Shown here: positions 26,604 to 61,193 of the stretch, piece by piece
Layout: each line of letters opens with the position of its first letter
Position numbering within the stretch: position 1 is the first letter of the stretch
Assembly (NCBI GenBank): GCA_016699535.1
Contig: CP064980.1
Span: 1,425,728-1,489,727 of the forward strand
Source of the DNA: Myxococcales bacterium
Lineage (GTDB): Bacteria; Myxococcota_A; Polyangia; Polyangiales; GCA-016699535
Reading direction: 5' to 3'
Length of the DNA: 64,000 nucleotides
The notes under the pieces: generated by a model
Told to the model about the DNA's origin: nothing
What the model saw: only the letters and a program-made list of their open reading frames with translations
Databases searched by the model: none
Position numbers and translations under genes: made by a program

Positions 26604-26675
26604 AAAGGGGCCTCCTCGGTACTATAGCTTTGCAAAAGGAGCAAGCCTAAACGTCAGACCTAGCTCTGGAGGGCT

Positions 26676-37148: not shown

Positions 37149-37160
37149 TTGGTCTTAGTT

Positions 37161-37700: not shown

Positions 37701-37709
37701 GACTTGTGA

Positions 37710-38508: not shown

Positions 38509-38751
38509 ACCCCAATTCTGTTACCCATCAGGGTTTACGCTTTTGTAACCCATCAGCTTTCTGTGCACATATTTGTAGCCCAAGGTAGGCCAAATGACCC
38601 CATCTACGGGTTTTGGGATGGGACAGACGCGAGAAGTGTACTGCGGAAATATTGTGTATGTCGATTGATTTTACAGCAGAAGATGTTTCGTATTGCTAAA
38701 AACGCTGCTGGTATGGTCTTTGCAGAGTCGTAGAGTGTTTGTCGATAATCC

Positions 38752-39648: not shown

Positions 39649-39893
39649 GGATAACTGGGGCCACATAGCTTTTCTTTTTAGCCAAGGATCAGTCGACTTC
39701 GAATCGGCGGCTTTGGCAAGCGCCCTCATGATAAGTAGAAGCTAAACTATCTACTGAGAAAGGAAGGCTATGCCAGATCAAGCGAGCGTCTCTCATGTTT
39801 TGTTGATGTATACTGGATCGATGCGGTCTTTACCGAAACGCCTTCGGTTACCATTTCGTGCAGCGCACACCCTAACGCTCAAGCACTTACGAA

Positions 39894-40808
39894 CTATTTG
39901 GCGTGAAAAACGGTCTGAGCACTGGCTGCTTGACTGCCCGTTGAAAAATCCAGACCGAGTTGTTCAAAAATGCTTGGGCAGTCCGAGTCGTCAAACTCAG
40001 ACATGCAACCTGGGGCTCCATATGCATTTTTGAGATCGGTTTCGGCCATGAGTGCTGCATAGTCAAACACAATGGTATTTTTGGAGGGGTCGAAGCCATG
40101 GAGTTCAATGTGAGCAAGGTTTTCATGAGAGCAGCTCTTGACCTCACCTTCTTCGGGCCATCCTGTGCACCCTGTACTTCCCAGGTGAAATGGAAAAACA
40201 ACTGGATTCCCGTCGGTGACACCCACTTCAATTCGTGCGAATTTATAACCATCGAGCCAACTCCAAAACATGGAAGTCAAACTTAGCGGGGGCGGAGCAT
40301 TCGAAAGGTCAATGTGGTTGTGCACGAAAGGAACTCCGAATTTAAACGAGATTCCGTCATAGTTCCCTTCGGGAACGTCGAGCTCAACAACAGTGTTGAG
40401 ATCTGGGTTTCCACTTTCACAAAGACCTGTTCCGTCTTCAAAATCAAGCAGGACTAGATTGTCGTATTGCCATTTGCTGTTTTCATTGAGTGTCACATCA
40501 GTGTGATGGCCGTCAGTATCAATGAGCTGAATGTCATTTATGTAGAAACGAAAATCAGCAAATTCAACAGTCGCCTGGCTAAGACCCACGTCGTGATAAA
40601 CACTTCCGCATTGGATAGCTTTTCCTGAAACCTCGGCTGAGAACTGCAAAGAAAGGTGGGTTACAGCTCCCTCCGTAGACTGGGGCTCGTTTGGGGAACT
40701 TGTCGGTGAGTCAGGATCGCTTTGTGAACAAGCTATAGAGAACAAAGCTACGACCAAACAGATGTTGTACAAAAAGCGCTCAAGGCGAAACGGCACTGCA
40801 ATCTCCAT
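39894..40808 (-). CDS. MbnP-like / metallo-mystery-pair four-Cys-motif family lipoprotein (tentative)
   Basis: ATG at 40808 gives MEIAVPFRLERFLYNICLVVALFSIAC (lipobox). FRFYINDIQL, LLDFEDGTGLC, FKFGVPFVHNH, MFWSWLDGYKF, HLGSTGC and GCMSEFDDSDC match my recollection of the TIGR04052/MbnP pattern. Not verified by search. Confidence 0.55.
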   Translation of the reverse strand: MEIAVPFRLERFLYNICLVVALFSIACSQSDPDSPTSSPNEPQSTEGAVTHLSLQFSAEVSGKAIQCGSVYHDVGLSQATVEFADFRFYINDIQLIDTDGHHTDVTLNENSKWQYDNLVLLDFEDGTGLCESGNPDLNTVVELDVPEGNYDGISFKFGVPFVHNHIDLSNAPPPLSLTSMFWSWLDGYKFARIEVGVTDGNPVVFPFHLGSTGCTGWPEEGEVKSCSHENLAHIELHGFDPSKNTIVFDYAALMAETDLKNAYGAPGCMSEFDDSDCPSIFEQLGLDFSTGSQAASAQTVFHAK

Positions 40809-42253
40809 GATCTCGAAGAGCAAGTATCTCGAAATCCGAGCCTGCGAAGTTCTTAGCTTGCACAAGCATGATGAGACAGCTTATGCCGCTCTGCCCTGAG
40901 TTTTTCAAGCTTTGAAGTACCTGTGCAGATGATGTGCCGTCTTGAGAGCTCTCGAGGTTAACTTGCAGGTTTACAGAAAAAGGCATGCTGCTCATCGCAG
41001 AGTGCATGGGATTACCGTCCGGCAAGTTAATGTCAGCATGTGCCATATTCACATAGTCGATGACGGTGCCATTGGCTAATATTTCATCTGGCATATCTGA
41101 TTGCCAGATCGCAGTGACACAGGATTGTACTCCTTTAAAACCTTCAGCAACGGGCCACTGTATCTCATAGGGCCAGAAGCGTGCGCAGGCATGGTTAACG
41201 GTGGGCTCTTCGGGTGCAGGCTCGAGCTCTTCAGGGACAGTCGGTGAGTCGTCGATTAAACTATCAGTCGGCATCGTGTTGCTTTGTGGATCAAAGCTGC
41301 ATTCTGCCACTTTGCTTTCTGGGAGTTGGAGCAGGGCTGCAAGCGGTGTAACCTCAACGTTATCAGGCCCATGCCCGTAACGAAATACCGCTCGTTCAAA
41401 CACTTGAATGCCCTCGCCAGTGCCACAGGCAAATTCCTGGCTACGGCAAAACGGCGACATCGGGCGGCCCCAACGCATCAAAGCAGAGCTATAGATGCAA
41501 TCGCGGTCATTGGGGCCACATTCACCTGTTGGAAAGTCGATACCGTTGCTTTTCCAAAGATCGAGGAAAGCTTTATAAATCCCAAAAGTAAAAGGCTGAT
41601 CAATATGGTAGGGAGATTCCGTAAACTCACTTGAATAGTTTGATGGGTCAGTTTCACATTCATACAATGCACCGTTTGCGTAGGAGCTTTCGATAGCCGG
41701 CAGGTTGTCCGGGTCAAACAGATTAACAAGCCCGCCAATCACACCCGTACGTGGACGTCTTAGATATTCGTCAAAATCGCCATCGTTACGGCCGATGGCT
41801 TTGAGATCTTGAACCGAGCGTAGGCCGATCATGCCACCCATTTGAAGCGCTAGCCACTGTGCTCCTGTTCGCGTCAACATGACTTTATAAGGCTCTTCAT
41901 GGCCAGGTTGATACTCCAGCTGGCCGTAAGGGAGTCTAAGGGTAATGATCTCCGGGCCCCAATCCCATGATCCGTCGTGAGCCCACGGCAAACTCTGTAG
42001 AGCGAGCCAGGCATTGTGCTCAACCTTTTTGCACGCCGGAAGGCGCCTTGAGATAGTGTGATCGTTTCAGGAAGGAATCGAATGCGAGTAGCGCATCGTT
42101 CAAGTAGTGCGAATCAACTCCGTCTATCAAACATCCGGCGTTAAGACCGTCGTTTACCGAGTTAATTTCATTATCATTCGACTGGTTTATTGCCGTGCAG
42201 GATCCTAACCAGAGCAACGCAACCGTGTGGCAAAAAGGCATGAATAATTTCAT
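40780..42253 (-). CDS. Hypothetical lipoprotein (about 490 aa), split by an apparent 1-nt insertion in a T5/A5 run (42026-42030)
   Basis: ORF 42020..42292 carries MKLFMPFCHTVALLWLGSC (lipobox, ATG 42253). The frame of ORF 40780..41991 is open upstream to about 42068. Joining in GCAAAAAGG gives ...APSGVQKVEHNAWLALQSLPWAHDG... No family recognised and no CXXCH motif. Confidence 0.6.
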
Positions 42254-42363
42254 AAACACGGGTCTATACTGCAAGTAGTTAGTGATGGGCATGCGGCATT
42301 TCGTCGCATGGCTGATGGTCTAGTGCAGCGAACTTTTGTGTCTGGAAGAGAAAGTTAGGAGTT

Positions 42364-42537
42364 ATGGAAGTGAACGAGGTCAAGGGGCTAAGGGTGCTTG
42401 AAGAAGAAAGTCGGCATTTGAACAAATGCTGGACATTGATACGCCAAAAGATTTTGACTTACAAAGAGGGAATAGCCGGAAAAGCCGCAGGTAGCTGGTG
42501 GATGCCGTGCCTGTCGCCAGTCCTTGCAGCATCGTTG
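42364..42537 (+). mobile_element. Possible IS3-family OrfA leucine-zipper fragment
   Basis: MEVNEVKGLRVLEEESRHLNKCWTLIRQKILTYKEGIAGK resembles the L..LE.EN..LK...A.L.LDK.IL.E...GK region of IS3-family OrfA. Weak, by eye only. Confidence 0.3.
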
Positions 42538-42800
42538 CTCTTTGGCATGAGCGGCCAGCACGCCGTGGTAGCGCAAAAGATGAGACCGCGGCGGCGGCAC
42601 CAAGGCGCAGAGGCTGGTTGTCAAATCAAGCGGCTCAAACACCACCGCTTCGGTCCCGTCCGCCTATTGTCGCTTGAGTATATAGATGAGCTTGCCATAG
42701 CGATAGCGACGCAGGTGTTTGGTGGCCACAGGCGGCCTGGACAAGTAGGGGCACAATCGGGTGCGAGCACGCTTGTCTTGGGCATCGATGCGGCTGTCGG
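42538..42800 (-). mobile_element. IS91/ISCR-family (Y2 HUH rolling-circle) transposase C-terminal remnant, distal half
   Basis: 263 bp identical to 53661-53923. The minus strand reads DSRIDAQDKRARTRLCPYLSRPPVATKHLRRYRYGKLIYILKRQ*ADGTEAVVFEPLDLTTSLCALVPPPRSHLLRYHGVLAAHAKE, with an in-frame TAG at 42664-42666. Confidence 0.7.
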
Positions 42801-42934
42801 AAGCCCATCGGCCACAATCTCCAGTGAATAACACCAAAAATAGTACGATACGCCAACAAGACAGACGTCCCTAAAATGTCGCATAAAACATATATGTTGT
42901 AAAAATACAATTTTAATGTCCACTGCAGGACTCG

Positions 42935-43200
42935 CCATGGTAAACTGAATCGCAAGCTCAAACCTAGCTTTGCCAGTGGGATCGAGGCGATCAGCTGTCT
43001 AAGCAAGCAGTAAAAGTCCGGGTAGAGTCACGGGAAACCTTCGGGATCAAGGGTGAGATAACGCGAAAACCGTGCACATTGGACGAACTCCATGAACATC
43101 CACGACGATGCGCTGCACTCATGCCAAAGGACCCCAGTGGGGTCGCCGCAGACCCAGACGCCTTGCCTTGGTTGGATAAAAAGACATGCATTTCAAGGGG
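42935..43200 (+). ncRNA. Possible group II intron domain-I fragment, or another structured RNA remnant
   Basis: Non-coding, stem-rich stretch. GGGAAACCTTCGGG...ACGAACTCCATGAAC...TGCCAAAGG resembles GGCAAACCUUCGG...ACGAACUUCAUAUGA...UGCCAAAG of a bacterial group II intron as I recall it. No 5' GUGYG, no domain V and no RT ORF were seen. Confidence 0.25.
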
Positions 43201-43260
43201 TAGTGTTGGCACGTGCTTTGCAGTGATCAGGAAATGTCCATCCCAGCACCGAGGAGAGCC

Positions 43261-43929
43261 ATGAAATTATCAGATTTGCAAACCGGCCTATCTGCAGCCG
43301 TGCCCTTGGCCACGGCTTTGTTATGGAGCGCTTGCGCTATGGATGCCAGTGATCAGCAGCTGAGCACCGATCAGGGGGCCAGTGAAGCCAACCAGCAGGC
43401 TTTTTATGCGAACTTCGACTTGGCGTTTGAGTCGGATGGCGTTGTAGCGCCTACTGTTGACAACTTCCGGCTGGATTTTATTTTTGAAAAGAGCTCAACG
43501 GATGGGAATATTCAATATATTGTACGCGTCGAGCGCGTAATCGATCGTGATGTCATTGCATCTTTTGAGTTAGTAGCCGAGCCAATTGACGGCAAACCGG
43601 AACAACCTTCCCGGAGTTACCGAATGAGACCGCTCCAGGCAGCAGGAGTCGACTTTTTTGCTGACTTGCCCATGCTTGAAAATCCCATTGAATGTTTTTC
43701 CTATCCGAATGGCGATGCCAAGCAAGTTCCCTGTGAAGATGGTGCGGTCGACATGAAAGTTACTGTGACTGCCGCATCCGAAGAGACTGCCTTGTTGTCT
43801 GAAGGTAGTTCGATTGAGCTTGAAACGGCCATCACGTTACCCCATGCGAGCGAGCAGTCTGCGCAAACGTATAAAGCGATATCAACAAGCACACTTCATT
43901 TGGCCAACACCATTGAACCAAAGCCTTGA
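43261..43929 (+). CDS. Hypothetical lipoprotein
   Basis: ATG at 43261 preceded by GAGGAGAG. MKLSDLQTGLSAAVPLATALLWSAC lipobox. Confidence 0.6.
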   Translation: MKLSDLQTGLSAAVPLATALLWSACAMDASDQQLSTDQGASEANQQAFYANFDLAFESDGVVAPTVDNFRLDFIFEKSSTDGNIQYIVRVERVIDRDVIASFELVAEPIDGKPEQPSRSYRMRPLQAAGVDFFADLPMLENPIECFSYPNGDAKQVPCEDGAVDMKVTVTAASEETALLSEGSSIELETAITLPHASEQSAQTYKAISTSTLHLANTIEPKP

Positions 43930-44142
43930 GCAGCTTTGCTTGAATGGTTAGGGAAACCACCGAGCAGATTAAATACTTTTACGTCATTCTAACAAGTTTT
44001 TCCCGAGCAGCGTGGAATCTTCCTGCAGTCCCATTAGGGCAAGAACCGTCGGAGCCAGGTCCAAAATGTGGCTGCCCGTTTTGCAGACGAATTGGCGTCG
44101 TCGCCGCCACCTAGGTGCCAACCTGGGGTACCTGCGTGGCCA

Positions 44143-44850
44143 TCATGCGGTAGACATCGAGCCTCTGCTCAACGCGGCAAAAATCAAATGAACCAAAGCT
44201 GAAGGTCTTTCGCCAAAGCTCGGCCTGGTATGCAAAATTACGCTGGCCCAGGTGTATTTCGTCACGGTCTGCCCAGGTTCATCATAGCGGATGTCTGTAT
44301 TGGGTAAGCGCAACCCTATCATGTCGGAACTGCCCAGAGATATCCCATCTTGTGGACTATATTCAAACTCTGCATCGATATGCGCGCACGGAATCCGATC
44401 CGTCGGACCTATCTCCAGAGGCGGATACCAATCCAGGACGGCGGCGTCCAAATAGTCATCCGGATCGAGCGGTGTAACATCCGGTTGTCCATTTTCGTCC
44501 GTGCTCATTGTGGAAAGAACCACGCTTAGTCCCATCGACTCCAAGGTACCGCCCAACTCCATTTCTTGCTCGAGTGCTGGGATACAAGCATTGATAAATG
44601 TATTTTTTTCCAGAAGACATTGATAACTCTTCGCATCGTCTTGCCATGTTTCAATATCTTGACACGGCGCTTGCTCATACACCTGTTCGCAAATCCATTT
44701 TTTACTATCCATGAACTCCGGATTACGAATGACAGCACCCATTTGATTTTCAATCGAGTTATCCTCCGCGCCGCTCACGGCACAGGCTCCGACGTGAAGC
44801 AAAGATAGACTTTACAGTGCAACAAGAATCAAATTAGAGACATACGTCAT
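44143..44850 (-). pseudogene. Hypothetical lipoprotein with an in-frame TAA inside the signal peptide
   Basis: ATG at 44850 reads MTYVSNLILVAL*SLSLLHVGACAVSG, with TAA at 44812-44814. The ORF track restarts at TTG 44802. Confidence 0.5.
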
Positions 44851-45186
44851 CGCCCTCTAATCAACGCAAGAAGCGATCCATGTAAACACTTGACCACTTG
44901 TGGTTGTAGGGATGACTGAAAACAACATCGCTTTTTCGATAAACAGACTTGCTCGGAGGGTACTTTCGAACGATCCAAGGACTTGACTGAAAAGCTCTGA
45001 GGTCAACGCTTGGACAGCGGAGTCGTCCGACGAATTTCTTGTCCCCACATACTTTTGCCCAACCTTTTTTGTAAGCTTCGTACTCGGTCGTAGTCTGGTT
45101 GCTTCGAGCGCTTCTCGTGAGCTTTCTTAGTGGCTAACTTTTAACCGCGACTGAGCAATTACCATACGTAGATCGTCCGCAGTTAC

Positions 45187-46908
45187 CTAACGCGAAACAA
45201 CACTTCTACGAGCGGGCCCGAATTTAAACATCGGCCAGTCACTCAAAATGGCGCCATCTGGCAAATCCCAAGCGTAGACTTTGTCGGAAAAAGCCACCAT
45301 CTCAAGATATCCGTCACCATCTAAGTCGCCCACAGCAGGGGTATTCAGCAGCAACGCTCCAGTAGTGTAGACAGGGCCATCGTTACTCGGTGATTTCGTC
45401 AACTGGCTACCATTTCCATCAATGATGTGAACAAACCAACCGCTTGAAACAACAATTTTCCATATCGGCGTCACAATCATAGTCGGCGAGAACAAAACTT
45501 CGCGGAACATCGTAATTGCCAATATTGCCAGCTTCATCACGCGGAACCATGGGAAACCCACTCACAGCAATCCCATTGAGATGCCAAGCGTAGACTTTTC
45601 CATCCTGTGTACCCATCACTACATCGACTTGCCCATCTCCAGTGATATCTCCCAGAACCGGAGAGGCAGACGGCGCACCTGATGTGGGCTTTCCTCCAGT
45701 CCAACCCGAAAGCGTCATCCCGTGCTGATCTACTGCATTCACCAAAAAACCTAGGGTTGGATGGTCGGGACTTGCGATATTATAAAAGCTTCCGCTTCCA
45801 AAAAAGATCGAAGTTGAACTATTTTGCTGGAGCAATGCTGGAGAGGACTGAATGATCTCAAAATAGTAACGTGGAAACCCTGATAATCGAATACCATTGT
45901 CATCGACTCCATAGATAGATCCGCCACAATAACCAGCTGACCAGCCACCGGGCAACTGGTACGGACAAGACCAAGCTCCTCGCCACCTACCTCGAAGTTG
46001 CCTTCGTCAGTACCTATAAATACCTCAAGTTTTTGGTCACCATCGCTATCGGCCAGCGCCGGGGAGCTCCATATCGAATCGGCGAGAAGATTCGTCAAAC
46101 TTGGTATCTTATCCACATGTGCGCTAGCCGGCGGAAAACCGGAAACCATCACACCGTTGTGATGCCAAGCATAAATGCGCTTATCAAAACCACCGACGAC
46201 AATTTCCATGTCCCCATCATTGTCGATGTCGCCCAATGCTGGTGTTCCATAAATCGGATCAGCGCACCCTGAAGGTGGAATGCCCTCATCTACAGCAAGC
46301 TTGGGCCAACCTGATTTCAACACCCCATTGTCCTCAAGTACAATCACTCCCCCGCGATGGCAGGTCGATGCTTCAGATTTGCCGACACCCACAACGATTT
46401 CAGCTTTTCCATCCTTATCAATATCAGCAGCCGCTGGAGACGATTCAATGGATTCGCTGCCCGCTGCCAGACCAAAGGCGGTCGCGGTGTCGTAGCTCCA
46501 CAACAAACTCCCACTAGCATTCAATGCTACGATATGACCAGCATTGGTAGCGATCACCACTTCAAGTGTCCCGTTACCATCAAGGTCAACGATGAGTGGC
46601 GATGATGAGTTGCATGCATAGCTTGAAGGGTTTCCAGGACACGCCCTTAACCATGTGGTTGGTACGGTGTACGACCATTTGGCATTGACGTTACCCAACG
46701 GAATCTGTGGCGTAACCGGACACATAAAAGGCTCAGAAGGCCACGGTGAGTTGTCGGCATCCAAAACATCCGATGCCCCGTCGGTAGCCAAGTTATCCAT
46801 TGCTCCATCACCTAGACTCGCGTCGTCCAACTTCCCAGAAATATTGCCCGAACCACAGGAATTGATGAGCAACGAAAAAAATACAAATGCCGAGCATCTC
46901 ATAATCAA
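45187..46908 (-). CDS. FG-GAP/VCBS-repeat (integrin-alpha-like beta-propeller) lipoprotein, split by two apparent frameshifts
   Basis: Lipobox FFSLLINSC. Repeated DLDGNGTLEVV, DIDKDGKAEIVVG, GDIDNDGDMEIVVGG, DSDGDQKLEVFIG, GDITGDGQVDVVMG and GDLDGDGYLEMVAF. ORFs 45751..46908, 45419..45955 and 45187..45561 join at the C3/G3 run 45950-45952 and the A4/T4 run 45456-45459. Confidence 0.75.
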
Positions 46909-46956
46909 ACAACCCTATCGTGGTACGGGGTTCTTCAGCAAATTATGAGATACCTT

Positions 46957-47080
46957 CTAAGGTTCGGGTATTTTTTCAGTTCGCAAGCTACGAACAATAC
47001 CCCAACACATCAAAACGATAATGACACAAAACGGCAGTGCTGAAGTAATCGTTGCTGTCCGTAACGCTTGGAGGCCACAC
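46957..47080 (-). pseudogene. BCCT-family transporter C-terminal stub (about 40 codons)
   Basis: CGLQALRTATITSALPFCVIIVLMCWGIVRSLRTE matches the conserved GGL.ALQ...I..ALPF....L.M...L.K.L end of BCCT carriers. It abuts the IS91-like end at 47081. Confidence 0.5.
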
Positions 47081-47320
47081 GCATAAGGATTCCAAAGGTA
47101 GTTTTTGAGTTCGGGAACAGTGTTGGCATCCACAAATTCCTTAATTTTCATGTGGCCACTGCAAGATGGGCACGCGCTCGCATCTATCTAGAACACAGTT
47201 GCCAGGAATTTGGCCCAGGGGTTTCTGCAGGGTCATCGCCCCACAAGTGGAGCTGCGCTCCGGGCTCTTCGTCCAGCGGACCTGGCACGACTTGACCGTG
47301 CTCTTTGGCATGAGCGGCCA
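47081..47320 (-). mobile_element. IS91/ISCR-like element remnant, proximal half: 36-bp terminal sequence, 3' flank and the last 44 codons of the transposase
   Basis: 239/240 identical to 53441-53680. The minus strand reads AAHAKEHGQVVPGPLDEEPGAQLHLWGDDPAETPGPNSWQLCSR*. Confidence 0.7.
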
Positions 47321-47492
47321 TCATCCGAGGCCCCAAACGACGCCCCGCCACCAAAAAGTCATCGTTACCTTTAACTTTTTTCGAGGCGTACCAGCCCATG
47401 CCAAGCATGGCCGCCATGTAGAACAAGACAATAGCAATAACGATAAACGACGGGCTCAGAACACCCTTCAAGAATGCAGACTGCATACTCAA
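47321..47492 (-). pseudogene. Sodium:solute symporter (SSS) family N-terminal stub
   Basis: MSMQSAFLKGVLSPSFIVIAIVLFYMAAMLGMGWYASKKVKGNDDFLVAGRRLGP is a typical SSS N-terminus. It is fused in frame to the IS91-like remnant at 47320/47321. Confidence 0.5.
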
Positions 47493-47826
47493 TTATGCGC
47501 TCGATTTCTACTGGCATAATTATTCACGAGACATGCCATGGATGTCTATTCGTCATCATAAAAATGCCAGAGTTGGCATGTTCGGCCCTCCGCGTTCCAT
47601 CGCATTTTTACACCCACATCGGCTTCTGAGAGGTGCTCATGCATGCGAAAAAGTGGGTGACCACTAGCTGCGCATCGCGGAGTACAGCAAAGCGTAAGCC
47701 ACACAAAGTTGAAATCGATATTCACTATCTTACCGTTTTGTTCACTGGGCTTCAAAATGAGGCCTCCGCACCGCCACAATGCTAGACTCAATCAATAACA
47801 GCCCTTCTAGACTCATAGTGATTGCA

Positions 47827-50007
47827 ATGAAAACTTCGCTACTTCGTTTAGTCATTGGTATTAGCTTTTTGACTATCAGCATAAACTGCGGCCGAATCGG
47901 CTTCGATGCTGTGGCGCAAGACGCCGGAGTTGACAGCTCGGGTTCCGATAGCAATAGCCCTGCAAGTTGCTCTGACAACCTAAAAAATGCCGCGGAAACC
48001 GATATCGACTGCGGTGGTGGAAGCTGTGCAGCTTGCAATGTTGATCAGCAATGCGTTCTAAACAGTGACTGTCTAACTCAAGTATGCAGTGCAAACCGTT
48101 GTGTAGCAGTTAGCGCAACCTGTTCTGATGGGGTGCTCAATCAAGACGAGAGTGATGTCGACTGTGGTGGAAGCTGTGGACCCAACTGCAGCGATGGACA
48201 GGACTGCTCTCAAGCAACGGATTGCGTATCACTTGTGTGCTCGGGGCAGGCGTGCCAGGCGGCAACCTGTTCTGATGGGGTGCTCAATCAAGACGAGAGT
48301 GATGTCGACTGTGGTGGAAGCTGTGGACCCAATTGCAGCGATGGACAGGACTGCTCTCAAGCAACGGATTGCGTATCACTCGTGTGCTCGGGGCAGGCGT
48401 GCCAGGCGGCAACCTGTTCTGATGGGGTGCTCAATCAAGACGAGAGTGATGTCGACTGTGGTGGAAGCTGTGGACCCAATTGCGTATTTGGTAGTGGTTG
48501 TCTTTCAAACGGCGATTGCATTTCTAACGTCTGTACGATCAACATCTGCCAAGCCTTAACCTTTTACTTGGATTCTGATGGCGATGGTTATGGTGACCTC
48601 AGTAATCCAACTCAAGCCGACACCCTGCCGGCAGGCTATGCCAACAATAGTAGCGATTGCAATGATGGCGACAACGGTATCCATCCAGGCGCAGCAGAAC
48701 TGTGCGATGGAAGTGATAACGATTGCAATGTCGGCACCCTTGACGGCTCGGATCAATGTGCTGCAAATGAAAGCTGCGATGGCAGCAACTGTATTGCCCT
48801 TGCCGCAGATTGGGTGCGTGGCCTCAATGTCGATAACCAAGATATTCCAGCCGATGTTACTGAGCTTGCCGATGGAACTCTTGTTACGATTGGAACACTC
48901 GACTCGACGGAACCCTATCTTGCTCTTTGGGCACTTAATAGTGCCGGTAATGAGATGTGGAAAATGCAGTATGATACTGCGTTAACCGATCAGGGGAAAA
49001 GCATTTCTCCTGATAGTACTGGTGGATTCGCAGTGGCCGGACAGTCGCTTGTTGTTAGCGGATCGGACATGGACATTTATGTGGCCAAAGTCGATAACTC
49101 CCGTAATACCTTGTGGGCCAATTACTACGGGAGTGTTGCCTATGAAACCGAGCCGGAAGTCTTTCAAATGTCCACGGGTAATATTATTATAGCTTTTAGG
49201 ACCACTTCATATGGTGCAGGCGTGTCATGGGATTCGATTGTTGCCGCACTTGATAGCTCAGGCAATGTGCTATGGACAGTACAAATAGGAACTCCTGGTC
49301 GAGAAACAATTTACGGATTGACTGAGATCAGTACGGGCGACGTGATCATTGTTGGTTCTACAGACGGAGTAGGCGCAGGAGGACTTGATATTTTGCTTGC
49401 CTCGCTGAATCCAACTGGAGCGGTTAACTGGATCGAACTGATCGGAGATACGAGTTCTGATGTAGGTTATAATATTGATGCCCTGCCAGGGGGTGGATTT
49501 ATCATTGGAGGAATGGTCACATTTGGGGCAAGCCGCTATTTTGTTGCCAGTGTTGATAGTTCCGGGGCATTCACTTGGTCCAAGCACTACACGACAGCTA
49601 TTATTAACGATATTGTTATTCGTGACGATGGCAATATCAGCACTTTTGGCTATACGACGAGTGCTGCCCACGTCCTTACCGTTGACTCCGCGGGCACTCC
49701 CTTGTGGTATCGGCGTTTGTCACAGGGTTTTGCCAACTCGATTTTGGGAGCGTTGACAGACACCCAAGATGGCGCGTTGGTCGCAAGCCTTTGGGGTACA
49801 GGTCGAGACTTTACACTATGGAAGCAAATTGATTCGGGCGCTACTGTATGCGGGACATCGACCACTACAATAACCGAAACCGTAATTTCACCAACGCCCG
49901 TTGACGCTTCTGCTCTTGTAAGTATTTCAAGTCCATTGCTCGAGACCAATCCTACCACCGGTTTAGTAAACACTTCCCTTGGAACCTACTCAGCAACCTG
50001 CAACTAG
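47827..50007 (+). CDS. Lipoprotein with Cys-rich repeats (including a near-perfect tandem triplication), a putative metal-binding motif and an SBBP-type beta-propeller
   Basis: ATG at 47827. [29 protein letters not shown]. 49-aa repeats [60 protein letters not shown]...[24 protein letters not shown]. The C-terminal repeats fit the beta-propeller SBBP pattern. Confidence 0.85.
48121..48483 (+). repeat. 147-bp near-perfect tandem repeat, about 2.5 copies, in frame within the 47827..50007 CDS
   Basis: Copies start at 48121, 48268 and 48415. Only two substitutions were seen between the full copies (CCCAACTGC/CCCAATTGC, CACTTGTG/CACTCGTG). Confidence 0.9.
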
Positions 50008-50138
50008 TGCACTAATCGCAAACCAACGATTATGGATTGACTCGCGGCAAAGACACACCCGTTATGGCATGTTAGCAGAATCGGACCAACAACGTTGGTC
50101 CCGACTCAACATGTCTAAATAGAGTGAGTGATGGCGAT

Positions 50139-50174
50139 GCATAAGGATTCCAAAGGTAGTTTTTGAGTTCGGGA
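50139..50174 (-). repeat. Solo copy of the 36-bp IS91/ISCR-like terminal sequence
   Basis: GCATAAGGATTCCAAAGGTAGTTTTTGAGTTCGGGA is identical to 47081-47116 and 53441-53476. Flanks are unrelated on both sides. Confidence 0.85.
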
Positions 50175-50469
50175 GCTGCAAGGCGTTTTTACTACGATAG
50201 CAACTAGTCGCTACATCCACAGGTAATGGGCTTCAATCTCGCACGCAGATTGAGAGGATACCGTTAGCGGCCGACCCACTCTGAATCCCGTTTGCTTCAA
50301 CGCTTGTTCTTACGGAAAGCGGCTGAATTTAACCGTCAGACTCTCAAAGCTGCCTTTCATTTCAACAATCTCGTGTAGGGAAAAAGACACCACGATGTTG
50401 TAAGCCTCACATCAATTAGTCCTCCTTTTCACTTTGACTATAGTGTTTTTTTCTGTCACAGTTGTAATT

Positions 50470-53322
50470 ATGATAAAAACTACCATCTCCATTCTGACGT
50501 TTCTTTTGATGGCAACTCTCCTTTCAGCATGCGGTCGTATCGGTTTCGACGCTGTAGACACTCAAAGTCTTCAAGTTGATTCCGATAACGATTCCGTCTT
50601 GGACAGTGCAGAGCTTGCGGAAGACACCGATGGAGACGGTATCCTGAACTTCTTGGACAATGATGACGATGGCGACCGAATCTTAACCGCTATCGAAATC
50701 ATTCAAGAGCAGGATAATGCTGATGGTGATGAAGATGGTAGACCTGCTTATCTTGACACTGATTCTGACGGCGATGGTTTGCTTGATATTGACGAAGGTC
50801 AAAGTGATCTCGATGCTGACGGAATCCCAAACTATCTCGATGTCGACTCCGATGGTGACCAAATCAGTGATTCCATCGATGCCGATACTTATTGTAGCGA
50901 TGGAATACGCAATTTTAACGAAAGTGATGTCGATTGCGGTGGTTTGGCATGTCTACCGTGCAGTGAAGGATCCTACTGCCTGTTTCCATTCGATTGCAGT
51001 TCTGGGATCTGCACCGGAAATACTTGCACTACATCCAATTGCTCCGATGGCCTAATAAACCAAGATGAGACCGATATCGATTGCGGTGGCTCAACCTGCC
51101 CGGCGTGTACGGATGGGGCTACTTGCGACTCGGGTTCCGATTGCAGTTCTGGGACATGCACCGGAAATATTTGCACTACATCAAACTGCTCCGATGGTTT
51201 AATGAACCAAGACGAAACAGATGTAGACTGCGGCGGAAGTAGCTGCAGTGCATGCTCCGATGGTCTGAGCTGTACAGTAGCAGGGGACTGCACATCGGGA
51301 GTATGCACGGGAAACATCTGTCAAGCAGCAACATGCTCAGATAGCACTTGGAACCAAGACGAGACGGATGTGGACTGTGGGGGCTCGACGTGTAGCACTT
51401 GTGCGGATGGTCTGAGTTGCACCGCTGGTGGCGATTGCGGCTCTGGAGTGTGCACAGGCAACGTCTGCCAAGTGCCAACCTGTACCGATACAGTGCAAAA
51501 CTTTGATGAAACAGACGTGGACTGCGGCGGATCGACCTGCAGCGCATGCGCCGATGGTCTAAGTTGCGCAGCTGGTAGCGATTGCATTTCAAGTGTATGC
51601 ACAGGCAACATCTGCCAAGCGGCAACCTGTAGCGATAGCGTCAATAATCAAGACGAAACCGATGTGGACTGCGGCGGAAGCAGCTGCTCAGTGTGCACCG
51701 CAGGGCAAGGCTGCTCGGCTGGCAGCGATTGTGATTCAGGGGTTTGCAGCGGAAGCATTTGCCAAGCGCCCACGTGCAGTGACAGCGTGCAAAATTTTGA
51801 TGAGACGGATATCGATTGTGGCGGAACGATATGCGGCGCTTGCACAACGGGCCAAAGCTGCGGGGTTGGCGGTGACTGTGACTCTTCTGTGTGCACAGGC
51901 AACGTGTGTCAAGCAGCGACTTGCTCCGATGGTTTTTGGAACCAGGACGAAACGACGACTGATTGTGGCGGAAGCATTTGCTCGCCCTGTCCTCCGGGAG
52001 GTGGCTGCTCGGCTGGAAGCGATTGTGACTCCGGTGTGTGCACGGGCAACGTATGTCAAGCGCCGACTTGCTCCGATAGTGTGCAAAATCAAGATGAGAC
52101 GGGTGTGGATTGCGGGGGATCTATATGTGGTAGTTGTTCCAGTGGAACTGTTGTCGAAGTTTCGGCGGGAGCTAGCCATGTATGTGCGATCACGAATTCG
52201 TCCGCTGTACGATGCTGGGGATATAACGGTAGTGCTCAACTTGGATACGGACATACCAACAACATTGGTGATGATGAACCGGCATCTGCAGCCGGCGATG
52301 TCAGTGTTGGTGGCAACGTGATTCAAGTGAGCGCTGGTGGAGTGCACACTTGTGCTCTCCTTGATACTGGTACAGTGCGTTGTTGGGGAGCAAACAGTTT
52401 TGGACAACTTGGTTATGGTAATACCACGATTATCGGTGATGATGAACTGCCCTCTAGCGCTGGCGATGTAAATGTAGGCGGCACGGTGACGCAGATTGCT
52501 ACTGGATACCAACATACCTGCGCATTGCTAAGCACCGGCACGGTGCGGTGCTGGGGGTTGAACGCATGGGGACAACTTGGTTATGGTAATACCACGACTA
52601 TCGGCGATGATGAATTGCCCTCTAGCGCTGGTGATGTAAATGTGGGCGGCACGGTAACGCAGATTTCTTGTGGTCGCTACCACACCTGCGCTCTCCTTGA
52701 CACAGGAGCGGTACGTTGTTGGGGAGGAAATAATCATGGACAACTCGGTTATGGGAACACCAATACCATTGGCGACAATGAAACACCGGCTTCAGCTGGC
52801 GATGTTTCCGTAGGGGGAACGGTAACGCAAGTCAAGGCTTCGGAGACATTGTCTTGCGCGTTACTCGATATAGGAACGGTGCGGTGCTGGGGCTGGGGAT
52901 TTACTGGTCAGCTCGGTTATGGCAACACCAATAGCATTGGCGACAATGAAACACCGGCATCAGCAGGCGATGTTTCTGTTGGAGGAACAGTTAGCAGCAT
53001 CGATGTAGGTTCAGGTCATGTTTGTGCGCTTCTCGATACAGGCACAGTACGTTGCTGGGGGACTTCCGCAGACGCACAACTTGGCTATGGAAACAAGTTG
53101 GCCATCGGTGACAATGAACTACCCTCTAGCGCTGGTGATGTCACTATCGGTGGAACGGCAACCCAAGTAGTCGCTGGCTACATATTCAGCTGTGCATTGC
53201 TTGATACGGGAGCCTTACGTTGTTGGGGCTATGGAGGATACGGAACACTTGGTTATGGCAACATAAACATGGTTGGCGATAACGAAACGCCAGCATCCGT
53301 AGGCGATGTACCTCTTTTCTAA
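50470..53322 (+). CDS. Large lipoprotein: thrombospondin-type-3-like Ca-binding repeats, about 11 Cys-rich repeats and an RCC1-like beta-propeller
   Basis: ATG at 50470. [47 protein letters not shown]-type repeats. Repeated C[ST]D..NQDETD[VI]DCGGS.C..C..G..C....DC.SGVCTGN.CQ. Repeated VRCWG.N..GQLGYGNT..IGDDE.P.SAGDV.VGG.V.Q...G..HTCALL.TG. Confidence 0.85.
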   Translation: MIKTTISILTFLLMATLLSACGRIGFDAVDTQSLQVDSDNDSVLDSAELAEDTDGDGILNFLDNDDDGDRILTAIEIIQEQDNADGDEDGRPAYLDTDSDGDGLLDIDEGQSDLDADGIPNYLDVDSDGDQISDSIDADTYCSDGIRNFNESDVDCGGLACLPCSEGSYCLFPFDCSSGICTGNTCTTSNCSDGLINQDETDIDCGGSTCPACTDGATCDSGSDCSSGTCTGNICTTSNCSDGLMNQDETDVDCGGSSCSACSDGLSCTVAGDCTSGVCTGNICQAATCSDSTWNQDETDVDCGGSTCSTCADGLSCTAGGDCGSGVCTGNVCQVPTCTDTVQNFDETDVDCGGSTCSACADGLSCAAGSDCISSVCTGNICQAATCSDSVNNQDETDVDCGGSSCSVCTAGQGCSAGSDCDSGVCSGSICQAPTCSDSVQNFDETDIDCGGTICGACTTGQSCGVGGDCDSSVCTGNVCQAATCSDGFWNQDETTTDCGGSICSPCPPGGGCSAGSDCDSGVCTGNVCQAPTCSDSVQNQDETGVDCGGSICGSCSSGTVVEVSAGASHVCAITNSSAVRCWGYNGSAQLGYGHTNNIGDDEPASAAGDVSVGGNVIQVSAGGVHTCALLDTGTVRCWGANSFGQLGYGNTTIIGDDELPSSAGDVNVGGTVTQIATGYQHTCALLSTGTVRCWGLNAWGQLGYGNTTTIGDDELPSSAGDVNVGGTVTQISCGRYHTCALLDTGAVRCWGGNNHGQLGYGNTNTIGDNETPASAGDVSVGGTVTQVKASETLSCALLDIGTVRCWGWGFTGQLGYGNTNSIGDNETPASAGDVSVGGTVSSIDVGSGHVCALLDTGTVRCWGTSADAQLGYGNKLAIGDNELPSSAGDVTIGGTATQVVAGYIFSCALLDTGALRCWGYGGYGTLGYGNINMVGDNETPASVGDVPLF

Positions 53323-53440
53323 GAAAGCCATTCTTGGTTTCAGGGGTGCCATTGGCGTCGTCCGTTGATCGACGGTGGCGAAGTGACGAAGGTGAAGTAG
53401 AGACCGCCCCTAATGTAGGCGGAAAACGCACCCCTGTGAC

Positions 53441-53960
53441 GCATAAGGATTCCAAAGGTAGTTTTTGAGTTCGGGAACAGTGTTGGCATCCACAAATTCC
53501 TTAATTTTCATGTGGCCACTGCAAGATGGGCACGCGCTCGCATCTATCTAGAACACAGTTGCCAGGAATTTGGCCCAGGGGTTTCTGCAGGGTCATCGCC
53601 CCACAAGTGGAGCTGCGCTCCGGGCTCTTCGTCCAGCAGACCTGGCACGACTTGACCGTGCTCTTTGGCATGAGCGGCCAGCACGCCGTGGTAGCGCAAA
53701 AGATGAGACCGCGGCGGCGGCACCAAGGCGCAGAGGCTGGTTGTCAAATCAAGCGGCTCAAACACCACCGCTTCGGTCCCGTCCGCCTATTGTCGCTTGA
53801 GTATATAGATGAGCTTGCCATAGCGATAGCGACGCAGGTGTTTGGTGGCCACAGGCGGCCTGGACAAGTAGGGGCACAATCGGGTGCGAGCACGCTTGTC
53901 TTGGGCATCGATGCGGCTGTCGGCAAACACGGAAAACCCAGCCACTTCGATACGTGGTGT
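53441..53960 (-). mobile_element. IS91/ISCR-family element remnant, the longest copy: 36-bp end, 3' flank and about 135 C-terminal codons of the transposase with an in-frame TAG
   Basis: The minus strand reads ...GFSVFADSRIDAQDKRARTRLCPYLSRPPVATKHL...LKRQ*ADGTEAVVFEPLD...LVPPPRSHLLRYHGVLAAHAKEHGQVVP...CSR*. This resembles the IS91-family C-terminus (RY..RPP..., LvPpPr.h..RyhGv.A). TAG at 53787-53789. Confidence 0.75.
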
Positions 53961-54088
53961 TGAGGAAATACCCAGCGGTACTGGCGCCATCTCCGCACCC
54001 AGTTGCCATCATCGACTGCATATCAAACAAAGTATTCTCGCCGAGAAATCAACTCGACTATTGGCTTCCGAGTGCTAAGGTAACTTAT

Positions 54089-56476
54089 GTGATTGATTTG
54101 CAAAAAACACTTGTTCGATTGACTCTGCTGATAGGCTTGTGTCTCAGTGTTTCGTGTGACGGACAAATCCCTAGACTGGGTCCGAGCTCGCCGGATGTTT
54201 CGTTGCCAGATGCTGACCCATTACCAACCGATGCCTCCATTGACGATCAAGACACGAACTATCCCATTATTGTGTATGATATCCGTCATTTTGCCAACAA
54301 GGGGCAAACCCCCTCTCTGGCTCTTGAGTATTTCGATCGCATGCTCACGCTTCAAACTCTGCAAGGCATCGTCAACCGCAATGTGCCGCGCTTGTATTTT
54401 GTTTACGTTCAGTTGCGTCGCGACGAAGGCACCATCAATGTGGATGAAAACTGGTTTTCTGAGCTTTGTGACCCGAGCTCAACTTTCGAATGCAGGTCTG
54501 ATTTTCAGGAACTTGATGGACGAGCCATTCTACGCTTTAAAGAAACCGACCAAAGCTCCGATGCAAGCTTGTCGATCGACGATCTGATTGCGAACTATTT
54601 TCTTGATGATCTTCAAGGCCTTGTCGTTTGGGATTCGCGCGTTCATGCGACCTCCCTGGCCGCTGCCAGCATCGCCGGCGCAACTTCTTCGCTTGCCGTT
54701 CGTTATTCGATGGACCCTAGCTCTTTGTATCAAAAGCTTGGGCACGCGCTTGCGTTGCCTGTCACCGAAGATTTATACGCCTTGGATTTTACACAACCCG
54801 GTATTCCGAACTACCCGGCTTTGGGCGACTTTGGACCTAAAAGCAACGTTTACCGCTGGCTAACCGAAACTTATATCAACACGGCCAAACTTGATACACG
54901 ACACGTGGCATGGTCGCTGGATTCTTTTTCAACAACCGTCACAAATGAGTCATGGCTCAACAACATGACCAGCCACATCAACTACTACGTCTCCAATAGA
55001 GCCATCATCGTTGATTTAGCCGTTCTGCAAGATTATACGCCCTGTGACGATCCTCTGGCTTCAATCAATTCGGATTGGCACACGGCCAATCATGTTCTAC
55101 AGGCTGCCAATCGAATCACAAGTGGACTTAAGTATGCTTATGGCTTTCCGCCTTGGCCTTACAAATACAGCAGTTGGAGAAACTGTGGTCTGTCCACAGA
55201 TAACCTTCCTCCCCCTTATGTCAGCGAACATCGGTTCGTCAATTTACTATCTAGCTATGGTTACACCAACGTCCTTGAAGCTGCCGAAAGTGGCGCTTCG
55301 GGTGACTCCATCGGCCAAATGCCTAACATGAGCTTCTTTTCCCATCTGAAAAACGATCAACACCACTACAATCTCAATGCTCAAGCGGTTGCGCCCGCAC
55401 AAGGAAGTAATGCAATCAATGGGGTGGTCTATCTCTTGGTCGCCATGGCCGACTATGAATCGGCGGGCCCCGCACATATTGCGCTGCAGGATTCAAAGAT
55501 TTTGAAGCAAAGCACAAGCCCAAGTTTCCCAGTGGCTTGGCTGATTAACCCCAACACTTTTGACCTTGCACCACAGCAATTGACGTTCATTTTAAGAACC
55601 AAAACCCAACACGACTATTTTGTTGGCGAAGCTGGTTACGGCTACTTTGATGCCAATCTTTTTTCAGAAAAGATAGCCATGGCACAGCTGGCTTCTCGAG
55701 CCTACGACCGTTACGGCTTAAGCATTACTGGTTTCACTATTTTCACACATAACATAGACCAAAAGGCCCTCCTGAGCCCCGAAGCACTTGACATGATGTC
55801 AGCTTTTAGCGGTGATGGCCTAGGCACCAGCCCCTCGGACGGCGATGGCGGAGATATCCGGATACAAAACCGTGTACCAATGATCAATGTCCGAGCCTAT
55901 TTTCATCCCGAGGATGATCCTGTCGTGGCTGTCCAACAGTTCCTCGCGCAACACACGTACCATGCGGGTGCGCCTAACTTTTGGATCGCACGATCGATCT
56001 TCATGGGTCGAGCTACAGTCCAAACCTATATCGACGAACTGAAAAGGCAAACGCCCGGTCGTGACTACCGGATTGTCGATCCCTACACTTTCTTTTATTT
56101 GCTTCGGCAATACCTGGGTTCCAACAACAACTATCGAGCCAGCTACCTGCAAGACACCTTTCCAAAAACGGTTAAGCCCAATCAGCTCGTGGCATTTAGT
56201 GTAACCATTCGGAACGATGGCTGGGATACTTGGCAAGCTAGTGGCGTCAATCCTTATGGCATAGGAGCTACCATCGACGGACAAAGCCCCTATCCCATCG
56301 CACAGCTACTGTCCCAAGACGTCGCTCCGTCCCAAAGCATCACCGTTGACTTGCAAATTCAAGCACCCTCAAGCCCCGGAATGCACGAATTGAAGATCGA
56401 TCTCAAAAAAGAAAACATCACCTGGTTCGAAAGCCAGCTTGATATACCCAGGTATATTCCCTTCACGGTCGAGTAA
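54089..56476 (+). CDS. Large lipoprotein, possibly a GxGYxYP-family glycoside-hydrolase-like protein with a C-terminal Ig-like (NBR1/CARDB-like) domain
   Basis: GTG at 54089 with AAGG 8 nt upstream. MIDLQKTLVRLTLLIGLCLSVSC lipobox. LQTLQGIVNRNVPRLYF and GEAGYGYFD resemble the GxGYxYP family. C-terminal VAFSVTIRNDGWDTW...ITVDLQIQAPSSPGMHELKIDL. Confidence 0.75.
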   Translation: MIDLQKTLVRLTLLIGLCLSVSCDGQIPRLGPSSPDVSLPDADPLPTDASIDDQDTNYPIIVYDIRHFANKGQTPSLALEYFDRMLTLQTLQGIVNRNVPRLYFVYVQLRRDEGTINVDENWFSELCDPSSTFECRSDFQELDGRAILRFKETDQSSDASLSIDDLIANYFLDDLQGLVVWDSRVHATSLAAASIAGATSSLAVRYSMDPSSLYQKLGHALALPVTEDLYALDFTQPGIPNYPALGDFGPKSNVYRWLTETYINTAKLDTRHVAWSLDSFSTTVTNESWLNNMTSHINYYVSNRAIIVDLAVLQDYTPCDDPLASINSDWHTANHVLQAANRITSGLKYAYGFPPWPYKYSSWRNCGLSTDNLPPPYVSEHRFVNLLSSYGYTNVLEAAESGASGDSIGQMPNMSFFSHLKNDQHHYNLNAQAVAPAQGSNAINGVVYLLVAMADYESAGPAHIALQDSKILKQSTSPSFPVAWLINPNTFDLAPQQLTFILRTKTQHDYFVGEAGYGYFDANLFSEKIAMAQLASRAYDRYGLSITGFTIFTHNIDQKALLSPEALDMMSAFSGDGLGTSPSDGDGGDIRIQNRVPMINVRAYFHPEDDPVVAVQQFLAQHTYHAGAPNFWIARSIFMGRATVQTYIDELKRQTPGRDYRIVDPYTFFYLLRQYLGSNNNYRASYLQDTFPKTVKPNQLVAFSVTIRNDGWDTWQASGVNPYGIGATIDGQSPYPIAQLLSQDVAPSQSITVDLQIQAPSSPGMHELKIDLKKENITWFESQLDIPRYIPFTVE

Positions 56477-56549
56477 TCCTCATGAACAGTCCCTGCGCAG
56501 CCAAAATCACATAGGTAAGAAAAGCGTAAAGTTAGATAGTTAAGTGTTT

Positions 56550-57451
56550 TCATGGGGGCATGGAGGAGCCATGCGGGTCACTTAAGGCCCCAGGTGGCGA
56601 AAAGTGGCGGTTTCTCGGGTATTTGGAAGACTTGGATTTAAGCGCGCGTGGACAGCTACTTTTCTTCTTTCGAGTGGGTAAGATGAAGAGTTCGGTTTGT
56701 TTCTGCAGGGCAATGAGTTTTTTCGGAATACTTCCCGGAGTGACGATGGCACAAAACATCCACTCAAGGGCAATCATACGCATGACAATCACAAAGCTGA
56801 TGCGCAAAGGCGAGCAGCGTCGTTTTTGCGCGACGCTTAGTATCCGGTAACGAATCAAGTTCTGAGCAAGCAGCAGGCCCCAAAGCTCTTGTATGACACC
56901 CTCTAAACGCAGCTGCCGTGACAAGATGGGTTTTCACCGAACTGAGCATGACCATCGGGCACAAGGGATAGCCGCTCGGGCCATAATCCCCAGCACTCGC
57001 TGTGCCAAAGGCTTTGTCGTTCGTCGCGCTTTCGTCGCAATGAAATAACGAACCATCCATCGTATAGACCTTCAGTCCATGAAAGTCCTTATGCTCCGCT
57101 TGCTTATCCCAGTGCAATGCGCTCGGTTTCGCAAAGCCACTGCAGTGGCTCGACTCCCACGGGCTGCCGTGCCTGGGTGATGCTGCTTTTGGCGACTTCC
57201 TTGTCCGAAGGCAGCGACAAATCTAACTCGCGCACCACTTCGCTGGTGGGGCGGTCGCGAACCAACGCCATCCCGATGAGCACCCAAATCACCTGCTCCA
57301 TCGGTAAACGCAGACGTCGAACCGTGGCACTGCCTGTTTGCTCCAAAGCCTGCCCTATCCATTCATACGGCAACTGCTTGGCACGCTTATCGGCTCGCAG
57401 CACATGCCCGTACATCCCGTATAAGGTCTCGATGCTGGTCTCGCTTGGCAT
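56550..57451 (-). mobile_element. IS4-family IS, an internal-deletion derivative: N-terminal domain plus start of DDE, then a jump to the C-terminal part
   Basis: ORF 57104..57451 carries an Nterm_IS4-like motif ([21 protein letters not shown]). ORF 56764..57117 (VYTMDGSLFHCDESATNDKAFG...YPLCPMVML) runs into ...KTHLVTAAAFRG. There the sequence continues out of frame with the C-terminal part (VIQELWGLLLAQNLIRY...) of ORF 56550..56924. Confidence 0.75.
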
Positions 57452-57670
57452 ACCCCCTTCATCCGATCACGCCGTTTTGATCCCAGCACGCTTTTTTCGC
57501 AATTTCACACCCTCGGAGCTCTTATCCGATCGGCAGTGGGTTTCGAGGCCCCACTTTGGTAGGCTGTGTTTGACTGAAGTGGCATAAATTGGGGCAAAAA
57601 ATTGCCACAATTGTCATCTTTTGGCTTTTTTGTTGTCTAATTTGGCATGACTGCTTAGGGTGCCGGGCAT

Positions 57671-58492
57671 ATGATTCGAGTGCTTTTTTTCGTGCTTAGT
57701 TGCGCGCTTCTTGGTTGCGGCGCGCGTTCTTGTCCTTCGAAGTCGCCTCGTTCGGTAAAGCAGGCGTTGCAGTTGCATCAAAGCATGCATGCCTATTTGT
57801 CATCGCTCAGGGCTGAAGCACGCGTGGAGCAATACGATCGTCATGGTCGCATCAAAGGGACGGTGATGATGTTTGTTATGCGGCCTGATCGTGTACGCTT
57901 TGATATGCTTACGCAGTTTGGTCCGGCAGCTATTCTGACCAGCAAAGGTCCGAGTTTTCAGTTCAGTGATTTTAAGGCCAAAAAGTTTAGCTCTGGCTTA
58001 ACGTGTCCGGGCAACATTGCACGGCTGATTGGGATGAATCTAAGTGCTGAAGAGCTTGGCAAACTGCTTTTTGCTGAAGTGCCTGAGATGCCTGCAGCGC
58101 GCACGAGTATGATGTGCACTTCCGAAGGCTACTATCGTTTGATGCGTTATTCAAAAGATGGCCGTCGCCAAGAAATCGACTTTGATGTGCGCGGAGCCGA
58201 TCGCGATAAAAGTATTGAAGAGCAGCGTCTAAGGCTTGTGCGCATTGAGCTTTATGACTCACAAAACAGGCGGCAGTGGAAAGTACTCTACGATGAGTAC
58301 AAGGTGCTTTCTCTGCCCGGCCATGCCATGGGGATTGCGATGCCACATCGCGTTGAGTTTTTTGATGGTTACCGAGGGAGCGAGGTGCTTTTGAAGTTCA
58401 AAAAAATCGACCTCAACGTTTCGATAGAATCTACAATCTTTGATCAAGAGGCCCGGCCCGGTATGACACTCGAGGAAAACCTGTGCGAATGA
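57671..58492 (+). CDS. Hypothetical lipoprotein (LolA/LolB-like or DUF4292-like)
   Basis: MIRVLFFVLSCALLGC lipobox. The size and beta-rich pattern suggest a lipoprotein-carrier-like fold. Weak assignment. Confidence 0.65.
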   Translation: MIRVLFFVLSCALLGCGARSCPSKSPRSVKQALQLHQSMHAYLSSLRAEARVEQYDRHGRIKGTVMMFVMRPDRVRFDMLTQFGPAAILTSKGPSFQFSDFKAKKFSSGLTCPGNIARLIGMNLSAEELGKLLFAEVPEMPAARTSMMCTSEGYYRLMRYSKDGRRQEIDFDVRGADRDKSIEEQRLRLVRIELYDSQNRRQWKVLYDEYKVLSLPGHAMGIAMPHRVEFFDGYRGSEVLLKFKKIDLNVSIESTIFDQEARPGMTLEENLCE

Positions 58493-61171: not shown

Positions 61172-61193
61172 ACATATACTTCCTAACCCCACA

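Follow-up and report, generated by a model that had tools for sequence, protein, structure and literature searches.

A repeated 36-mer as the probable outermost stub of a decayed IS91/ISCR-like element in a mosaic island of a Polyangiales genome

In insertion sequences (IS) of the IS91 family and in ISCR elements, the origin end (oriIS) is non-coding, lies 3′ of the transposase gene tnpA, carries one or two subterminal palindromes and adjoins a CTTG/GTTC-type tetranucleotide with T at position 2 (PMC13181058). The last 82 bp of IS91 are sufficient as an origin end (PMC13181058). The oriIS region of ISCR1 measures 232 bp (PMC6218425), and ISCR ends fold into secondary structures (PMC13393415). 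The locus described here holds a 36-nt repeat (the 36-mer) attached to pieces of an IS91/ISCR-like tnpA and interleaved with three predicted lipoprotein genes. It lies in a 64,000-nt stretch, the window, of a 4.02-Mb contig (CP064980.1, positions 1,425,728 to 1,489,727) from the metagenome-assembled genome (MAG) of an uncultured Myxococcales bacterium.

Three copies of a 36-mer with a common outer edge

The sequence GCATAAGGATTCCAAAGGTAGTTTTTGAGTTCGGGA occurs exactly three times in the window, always on the plus strand, at 47081, 50139 and 53441; this exact-match count agrees with an earlier note on the same DNA. Allowing up to three mismatches added no copy in the window, and 100 shuffles yielded none. 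The left flanks of the three copies are unrelated right up to the repeat, which produces a sharp common edge at GCATAAGG, on the 3′ side of tnpA. The sharpness of this shared edge cannot be attributed to chance. The 36-mers and the tnpA fragments, which run on the minus strand, are as follows.

47081..47116, minus strand: 36-mer copy 1 (exact match)
50139..50174, minus strand: 36-mer copy 2, solo (exact match), with unrelated DNA on both sides
53441..53476, minus strand: 36-mer copy 3 (exact match)
47079..47323, minus strand: IS91/ISCR-like tnpA fragment copy 1, last ~80 codons, 99% identical to 53439-53683
53439..53990, minus strand: IS91/ISCR-like tnpA fragment copy 3, the longest, last ~175-185 codons, with a Y2_Tnp match, two amber codons and one frame change
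42536..42800, minus strand: IS91/ISCR-like tnpA fragment copy 4, an internal piece lacking the 36-mer, 100% identical to 53659-53923

Copies 1 and 3 have a 245-nt block in common (47079-47323 and 53439-53683, 99% identical). The repeat extends over only 36-39 nt at copy 2, where the 36-mer stands alone, as had been reported. Read on the minus strand, it supplies the final 12 codons of the remnant. They are translated as PELKNYLWNPYA, continuing the frame of the zinc ribbon CPSCSGHMKIKEFVDANTV, and the edge is reached without a stop codon. The claim that the copies at 47081 and 53441 lead into a dead minus-strand IS91-family tnpA is thus borne out, except that the 36-mer is not its 3′ flank, being made of in-frame codons in a frame that stays open. 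With its third codon positions made degenerate, the 36-mer had 0 matches in a genome collection of 596 billion bases and in a metagenome collection of 241 million records.

On balance, the 36-mers are probably the common outermost stub of decayed copies of one IS91/ISCR-family element within a mosaic island. Copies of this element, alike in their outer edge, would once have lain in intergenic DNA beside lipoprotein genes. They would then have been eroded inward from the tnpA-upstream side by deletions that took away the far end together with the catalytic part, so that 36, 245 and ~550 nt remain. All four pieces, on the minus strand, sit where gene blocks of the island meet.

Transposase remnants from one dead element

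The longest remnant, copy 3, is about 530-550 nt long and encodes the C-terminal third of an IS91/ISCR-type transposase; the 480 bp given in the earlier note were too few, and the note did not list the fourth fragment at 42536-42800. Copy 3 matches Pfam Y2_Tnp (PF04986) at positions 89-180 of 183 (E 2.9e-15). Its best profile match is the NCBIfam model of ISCR clade Ia (positions 312-473 of 509, E 1.4e-24), and the NCBIfam IS91 model is also matched (E 1.7e-5). These matches uphold the assignment to the IS91 family that the earlier note had made from the letters alone, and support reading the remnants as minus-strand pseudogene pieces of an IS91/ISCR-family (Y2 HUH) transposase. Homologues of the remnant number 127. 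The nearest (P0001/P0002) are 62-64% identical and come from other Myxococcota MAGs. No match was found by blastn against plasmids.

The reading frame has decayed: amber codons interrupt it twice (KRQ*ADG and TVF*ID), and it carries a single frame change, in an A3C4 run. The TVF*ID amber codon and the frame change are common to copies 1 and 3, and the KRQ*ADG amber codon is common to copies 3 and 4. Where they overlap, copies 1, 3 and 4 are 99-100% identical. The pieces come from one already dead element, and the stop codons they have in common imply that they multiplied after its death or were homogenised later. Copies 4 and 1 overlap by 22-25 nt and jointly rebuild copy 3 (53439-53923), in permuted order around 4.3 kb of other genes.

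A tblastn search with 119 homologues detected no N-terminal or catalytic (HUH) part of tnpA in the window. Among the deposited-protein matches there is likewise no intact transposase from this MAG, the sole match being a chimeric open reading frame (ORF), P0099. The closest homologue of the remnant (L001 10001-13535, GCA_020633325.1) is an N-terminally truncated transposase gene too. There, ~330 nt of non-coding DNA are followed by a large Cys-rich lipoprotein gene on the same strand with a MYXO-CTERM-like tail.

Junctions around the copies

Copy 1 is bordered by parts of two transporter genes.

46957..47080, minus strand: C-terminal fragment of a BCCT-family transporter gene (Pfam BCCT, positions 451-485 of 485, E 6.8e-7)
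47324..47492, minus strand: N-terminal ~55 codons of a sodium:solute-symporter-like gene, fused to copy 1 (from the translation)

The BCCT match, which covers the last 35 codons, begins on the minus strand at the first residue past the 36-mer of copy 1. The symporter assignment is a reading of the motif NDDFLVAGRRLGP, for which Pfam gave no match. To the right of copy 1, the middle of tnpA is joined to codon ~55 of the symporter-like gene; the upstream region of that gene follows, and then the first lipoprotein gene, lip1. The junction on the lip1 side is a deletion scar, not a read-through junction at the far end of the element (terIS). The position of copy 1 between the end of the BCCT gene and the start of the symporter-like gene, with its join in mid-tnpA, counts for the stub explanation. 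The remaining inner junctions likewise join mid-tnpA to unrelated DNA. A deposited hypothetical protein, IPJ88_07040 (QQR91472; 47184-47486, minus strand), is a chimera of the symporter-like N-terminus and an out-of-frame transposase remnant.

The 5′ part of tnpA is missing throughout, and the terIS side and any cargo-terIS junction are absent from every fragment. As all fragments lack the N-terminal part and the terIS side, no read-through junction is visible. The flanks have no terIS stub or microhomology in common. Early termination at a ter-like GTTC/CTCG was considered for the inner edges and rejected: the 36-mer does contain a GTTC, but 4 nt inside the edge of copy 2, and the other inner edges read GCCA and TCGG. 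A scan for promoters and terminators yielded no signal stronger than in shuffled sequence, and no promoter that reads outward to the lipoprotein genes. An RNA element or tRNA-derived attachment site was also discarded, the region having no Rfam or tRNA match.

Three predicted lipoprotein genes

One large plus-strand gene lies to the right of each 36-mer, as the earlier note had stated. The coordinates coincide with the deposited calls QQR91473, QQR91474 and QQR91477 (IPJ88_07045, 07050 and 07065), and lipoprotein status is predicted.

47827..50007, plus strand: lip1, predicted lipoprotein with 49-amino-acid Cys-rich repeats, a MopE motif and a beta-propeller (Cu-binding_MopE E 4.5e-8, weak PQQ_2)
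50470..53322, plus strand: lip2, predicted lipoprotein with Cys-rich repeats and an RCC1 propeller (WD40_RLD E 4.9e-69, RCC1_2 E 6e-62)
54089..56476, plus strand: lip3, predicted lipoprotein of the GxGYxYP putative glycoside hydrolase family (GxGYxYP_C E 2.4e-11)

Each begins with a putative signal peptide ending in Cys, read by eye; the lipobox is canonical in lip2 and less so in lip1 and lip3. A full-length paralogue of lip2 with ~60% identity lies outside the island, at 15.9-18.3 kb. The lip2 family is native to this genome, which is counted in favour of the decayed-element explanation. This paralogue (15864-18304, plus strand) has Cys-rich repeats and an RCC1 propeller and is split by two frame changes; it may be a pseudogene or carry long-read indel errors. 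The start of lip3 lies only about 100 nt from the remnant of copy 3, and no homologue of lip3 above 30% identity was found among 5.8 billion proteins. For the six window proteins that were looked up, the 90% clusters are singletons.

Tandem duplication of one ancestral module was rejected as an origin of the arrangement: the C-terminal domains of lip1-lip3 are unrelated, yet the stubs are 99-100% identical. The lipoprotein genes appear as cargo of the island, and the sequence holds no sign that the element moved them.

A mosaic island in a conserved gene order

All three modules lie within a larger island that is flanked by core genes and holds remnants of a second IS family near its borders.

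37149..57670, no strand: genome-specific mosaic island holding all three modules (its flanking genes are adjacent in 24 relatives)
35280..37148, plus strand: left core flank, homocysteine S-methyltransferase/MTHFR fusion gene (S-methyl_trans E 3.8e-66, MTHFR E 2.5e-31)
57671..58492, plus strand: right core flank, DUF4292/LolA-like lipoprotein gene (Pfam and synteny), followed by oppD/oppF-like and crp-like genes
37161..37700, minus strand: C-terminal fragment of an IS4-family transposase near the left border (DDE_Tnp_1 E 1.1e-7; NCBIfam transpos_IS4_1 E 2.4e-21)
56550..57451, minus strand: degenerate IS4-family remnant at the right border, split over three ORFs (Nterm_IS4 E 1.3e-24; NCBIfam IS4 E 1.4e-11)

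Searching with the left flanking gene, which ends at 37148, gave 80 Polyangiales loci, of which L005 is the closest, at 77% identity. In 24 of these (Polyangiales/Sandaracinaceae), 3-191 nt separate the homologues of the left and right flanking genes, compared with 20.5 kb here. The oppD/oppF-like genes come next in most of these 24 loci, and the crp-like gene sometimes does. Since the flanking genes are adjacent in 24 relatives, the 20.5 kb are an insertion specific to this genome, absent from the same site in those relatives. The three tandem modules described in the earlier note are parts of this larger, IS-riddled island, and none of the relatives carries them. Among 84 loci a single island gene found a match, lip2, at 34% in L058. 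No close relative of the DUF4292 gene was found in metagenomes, and the searches turned up no genome of the same species or genus.

The two IS4 remnants lie in direct orientation and share a 115-nt repeat (37379-37493 and 56789-56903, 97% identical), and the left one is set off from the island border by the 72-codon tail of an unrelated ORF. No IS4 terminal ends and no target duplication were identified at the island borders. The island further contains a weak integrase-core fragment, two broken transporter genes and a split FG-GAP gene. Its composition is not atypical, with a GC content of 0.46-0.55 inside versus 0.45-0.54 outside.

Several other genes were observed in and around the island. 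A trypsin-like protease gene occupies 38752-39648; beside it, at 39894-41991 on the minus strand, are an MbnP-family gene and its 402-amino-acid partner, which has no Pfam match. The FG-GAP repeat lipoprotein gene (45187-46908, minus strand) consists of three overlapping ORFs, suggesting frame changes. Elsewhere in the window, G+C-rich hairpin repeat units are arranged in tandem with 157-nt spacing in intergenic DNA at 26139-26509 and 61186-61469. They are 84-98% alike and resemble repetitive extragenic palindromes (REP) or miniature inverted-repeat transposable elements (MITE). One set adjoins a tRNA-Leu(CAA) gene at 26516-26604. A 6S RNA gene is found at 22283-22469 on the plus strand (Rfam RF00013, 51.4 bits).

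The 36-mer edge compared with described origin ends

Several observations weigh against the 36-mers being remnants of an ordinary element end. If the edge is a true end, a non-coding segment is expected at the 36-mer; there is none, the ORF being open to the edge. Neither is there a hairpin or subterminal palindrome: folding of the 36-mer, and of 120-nt spans that combine 20 nt of left flank with 100 nt from the start of the repeat or its right flank, was no stronger than that of shuffled sequences (z -0.97 to +1.46). An IS91-type target tetranucleotide, which the earlier note had suggested looking for at the junctions, was not found. The plus-strand flanks beside the 36-mer read ACAC, CGAT and TGAC, not CTTG/GTTC. 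Their complements, GTGT, ATCG and GTCA, have T at position 2 in three of three, a weak hint, and none is canonical. The edge, if it is a true element end, resembles no described IS91/ISCR origin end. The earlier statement that the 36-mer marks the end 3′ of tnpA therefore stands in so far as a sharp common edge lies on that side, and falls short in that every origin-end test failed.

The point at which similarity to the family ceases adds a further difficulty. Family homology, as judged from a profile of 71 homologue tails, ends at ...EFVDANT, with the last 40 profile positions unmatched. The alignment to the ISCR model ends at ...HMKIKEF, profile position 473 of 509, and similarity to the nearest homologue ends at 53485 by blastn and at 53471 by tblastx. 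The nearest homologue instead reads on for another 22 codons to a stop, with ~330 nt of non-coding DNA behind it. All of the points at which similarity ends lie at the right-hand border of the 36-mer, which copy 2 delimits independently. Copy 2 ends 2-9 nt from the homology stop, which would be a coincidence if the 36-mer were merely the tail of tnpA. Nor would random deletion be expected to spare the same end, and remove the other, in all three stubs. Finally, dead copies are unable to transpose by themselves, so that their spread requires an unseen helper copy or recombination. The 36-mer edge thus does not have the canonical form of an origin end. It may be an end of an unusual kind, or else the 36-mer may be a separate unit that became attached to a truncated tnpA.

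Alternative explanations

The earlier note read the pattern as serial one-ended rolling-circle capture. On this model, replication began at the 36-mer end and ran on past the far end, so that the three lipoprotein genes were picked up singly and inserted in tandem; most of each element would then have been lost to deletions. Its geometry, with the cargo beyond the tnpA-upstream end, is what such capture would produce: the edge 3′ of tnpA is fixed, the inner extent varies, all units have one orientation and each holds one tightly trimmed gene. The ISCR model fits the remnant best, and the entire region is acquired DNA. In addition, lip3, at its short distance from the remnant, has no relatives in the lineage. 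One-ended transposition accounts for 1-14% of IS91 and IS1294 events (PMC13181058). However, the terIS side and the cargo-terIS junction on which capture would be recognised have not survived, the lip1-side junction is a deletion from mid-tnpA to mid-symporter gene, the origin-end tests failed and the copies were dead before they multiplied. The variable genes of ISCR1 arrays, moreover, are located at the oriIS side, and no experiment has ever demonstrated transposition of an ISCR element (PMC6218425). Capture needs later deletions in three of three units anyway and thus explains no more than insertion followed by deletion, leaving it an unlikely account. The more specific proposal, that a Polyangiales ISCR-like element whose origin end overlaps the last tnpA codons built the lipoprotein-gene array by repeated one-ended transposition, is slightly less likely again.

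A separate origin of the 36-mer is about as improbable as capture. On this view a short unit, either the tip of another, non-autonomous element or a site of recombination, would have been attached to a tnpA cut short just past the zinc ribbon. Duplication of the composite would have given copies 1 and 3, with copy 2 as the unit alone; this course of events is given the same low probability. The agreement of the three homology comparisons with the edge defined by copy 2 is what such a joint would leave, as is the different tail carried by the nearest homologue. Yet there are just three copies, two of them attached to tnpA, and the 36-mer has no structure or dyad symmetry. It is unmatched in the genome and metagenome collections and open in frame throughout, and local alignments can misplace their ends by a few codons.

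Dead copies could also have served as portable homology. Homologous recombination has been proposed to stitch together complex class 1 integrons. In the same manner, circular or plasmid segments might have been joined here through the tnpA pieces and then trimmed by deletions. The near-identical dead copies lie in direct orientation at block joints, and the permuted order in which copies 4 and 1 make up copy 3 is that expected of a fragment of a circle or concatemer. A direct trace of circles is absent, though, the overlap of 22-25 nt could arise by chance (about 5-10%, by estimate), and the common left edge is not explained by this process itself. This origin is improbable, somewhat below the two preceding ones.

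An artefact of assembly or polishing in a long-read MAG can practically be dismissed: frame changes do affect several window genes, and that of the remnant falls in the A3C4 run, but an assembler would not make an exact 36-mer at three sites with unique flanks, and the amber codons are substitutions.

Significance

Insertion of one element followed by inward deletion, the explanation preferred above, amounts to an undescribed, extinct IS91/ISCR-like element and an IS-riddled island in an uncultured Polyangiales genome of the activated-sludge type. As it stands, the feature is ordinary transposon debris of a known kind and matters little, apart from flagging IPJ88_07040 as a mis-annotated chimeric ORF. 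If the edge were a true, working origin end, it would represent another kind of end than those described, which are structured and non-coding. ISCR-type capture would then be seen to shape surface-protein repertoires in Myxococcota, and would extend beyond antibiotic resistance and beyond Proteobacteria.

Relation to known systems

The IS91 family, with IS91, IS801 and IS1294, resembles the locus in its Y2_Tnp domain and C-terminal zinc ribbon, in a sharp edge 3′ of tnpA and in edges without obvious direct repeats. In contrast to those elements, the copies here are dead and possess no catalytic part, terIS, non-coding origin end, subterminal palindrome or CTTG/GTTC.

ISCR arrays in complex class 1 integrons are comparable in that ISCR clade Ia is the best match of the remnant and that same-orientation copies are interleaved with unrelated single genes. 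In those arrays each copy is complete, includes an oriIS region of 232 bp and has its variable genes placed beyond that end in the same orientation, whereas only stubs are present here. The genes attributed to the stubs are found at the opposite side in divergent orientation, and the cargo consists of lipoprotein genes on a Polyangiales chromosome.

IS-rich islands and plasticity zones provide a third parallel. Like these, the 20.5-kb region is a strain-specific insertion in a conserved gene order and bears the remains of two or more IS families (possibly four), along with broken genes and cargo genes for secreted or surface proteins. It departs from them in its composition, which equals that of the flanks, and in that neither an integrase nor a tRNA target nor clean direct repeats could be identified.

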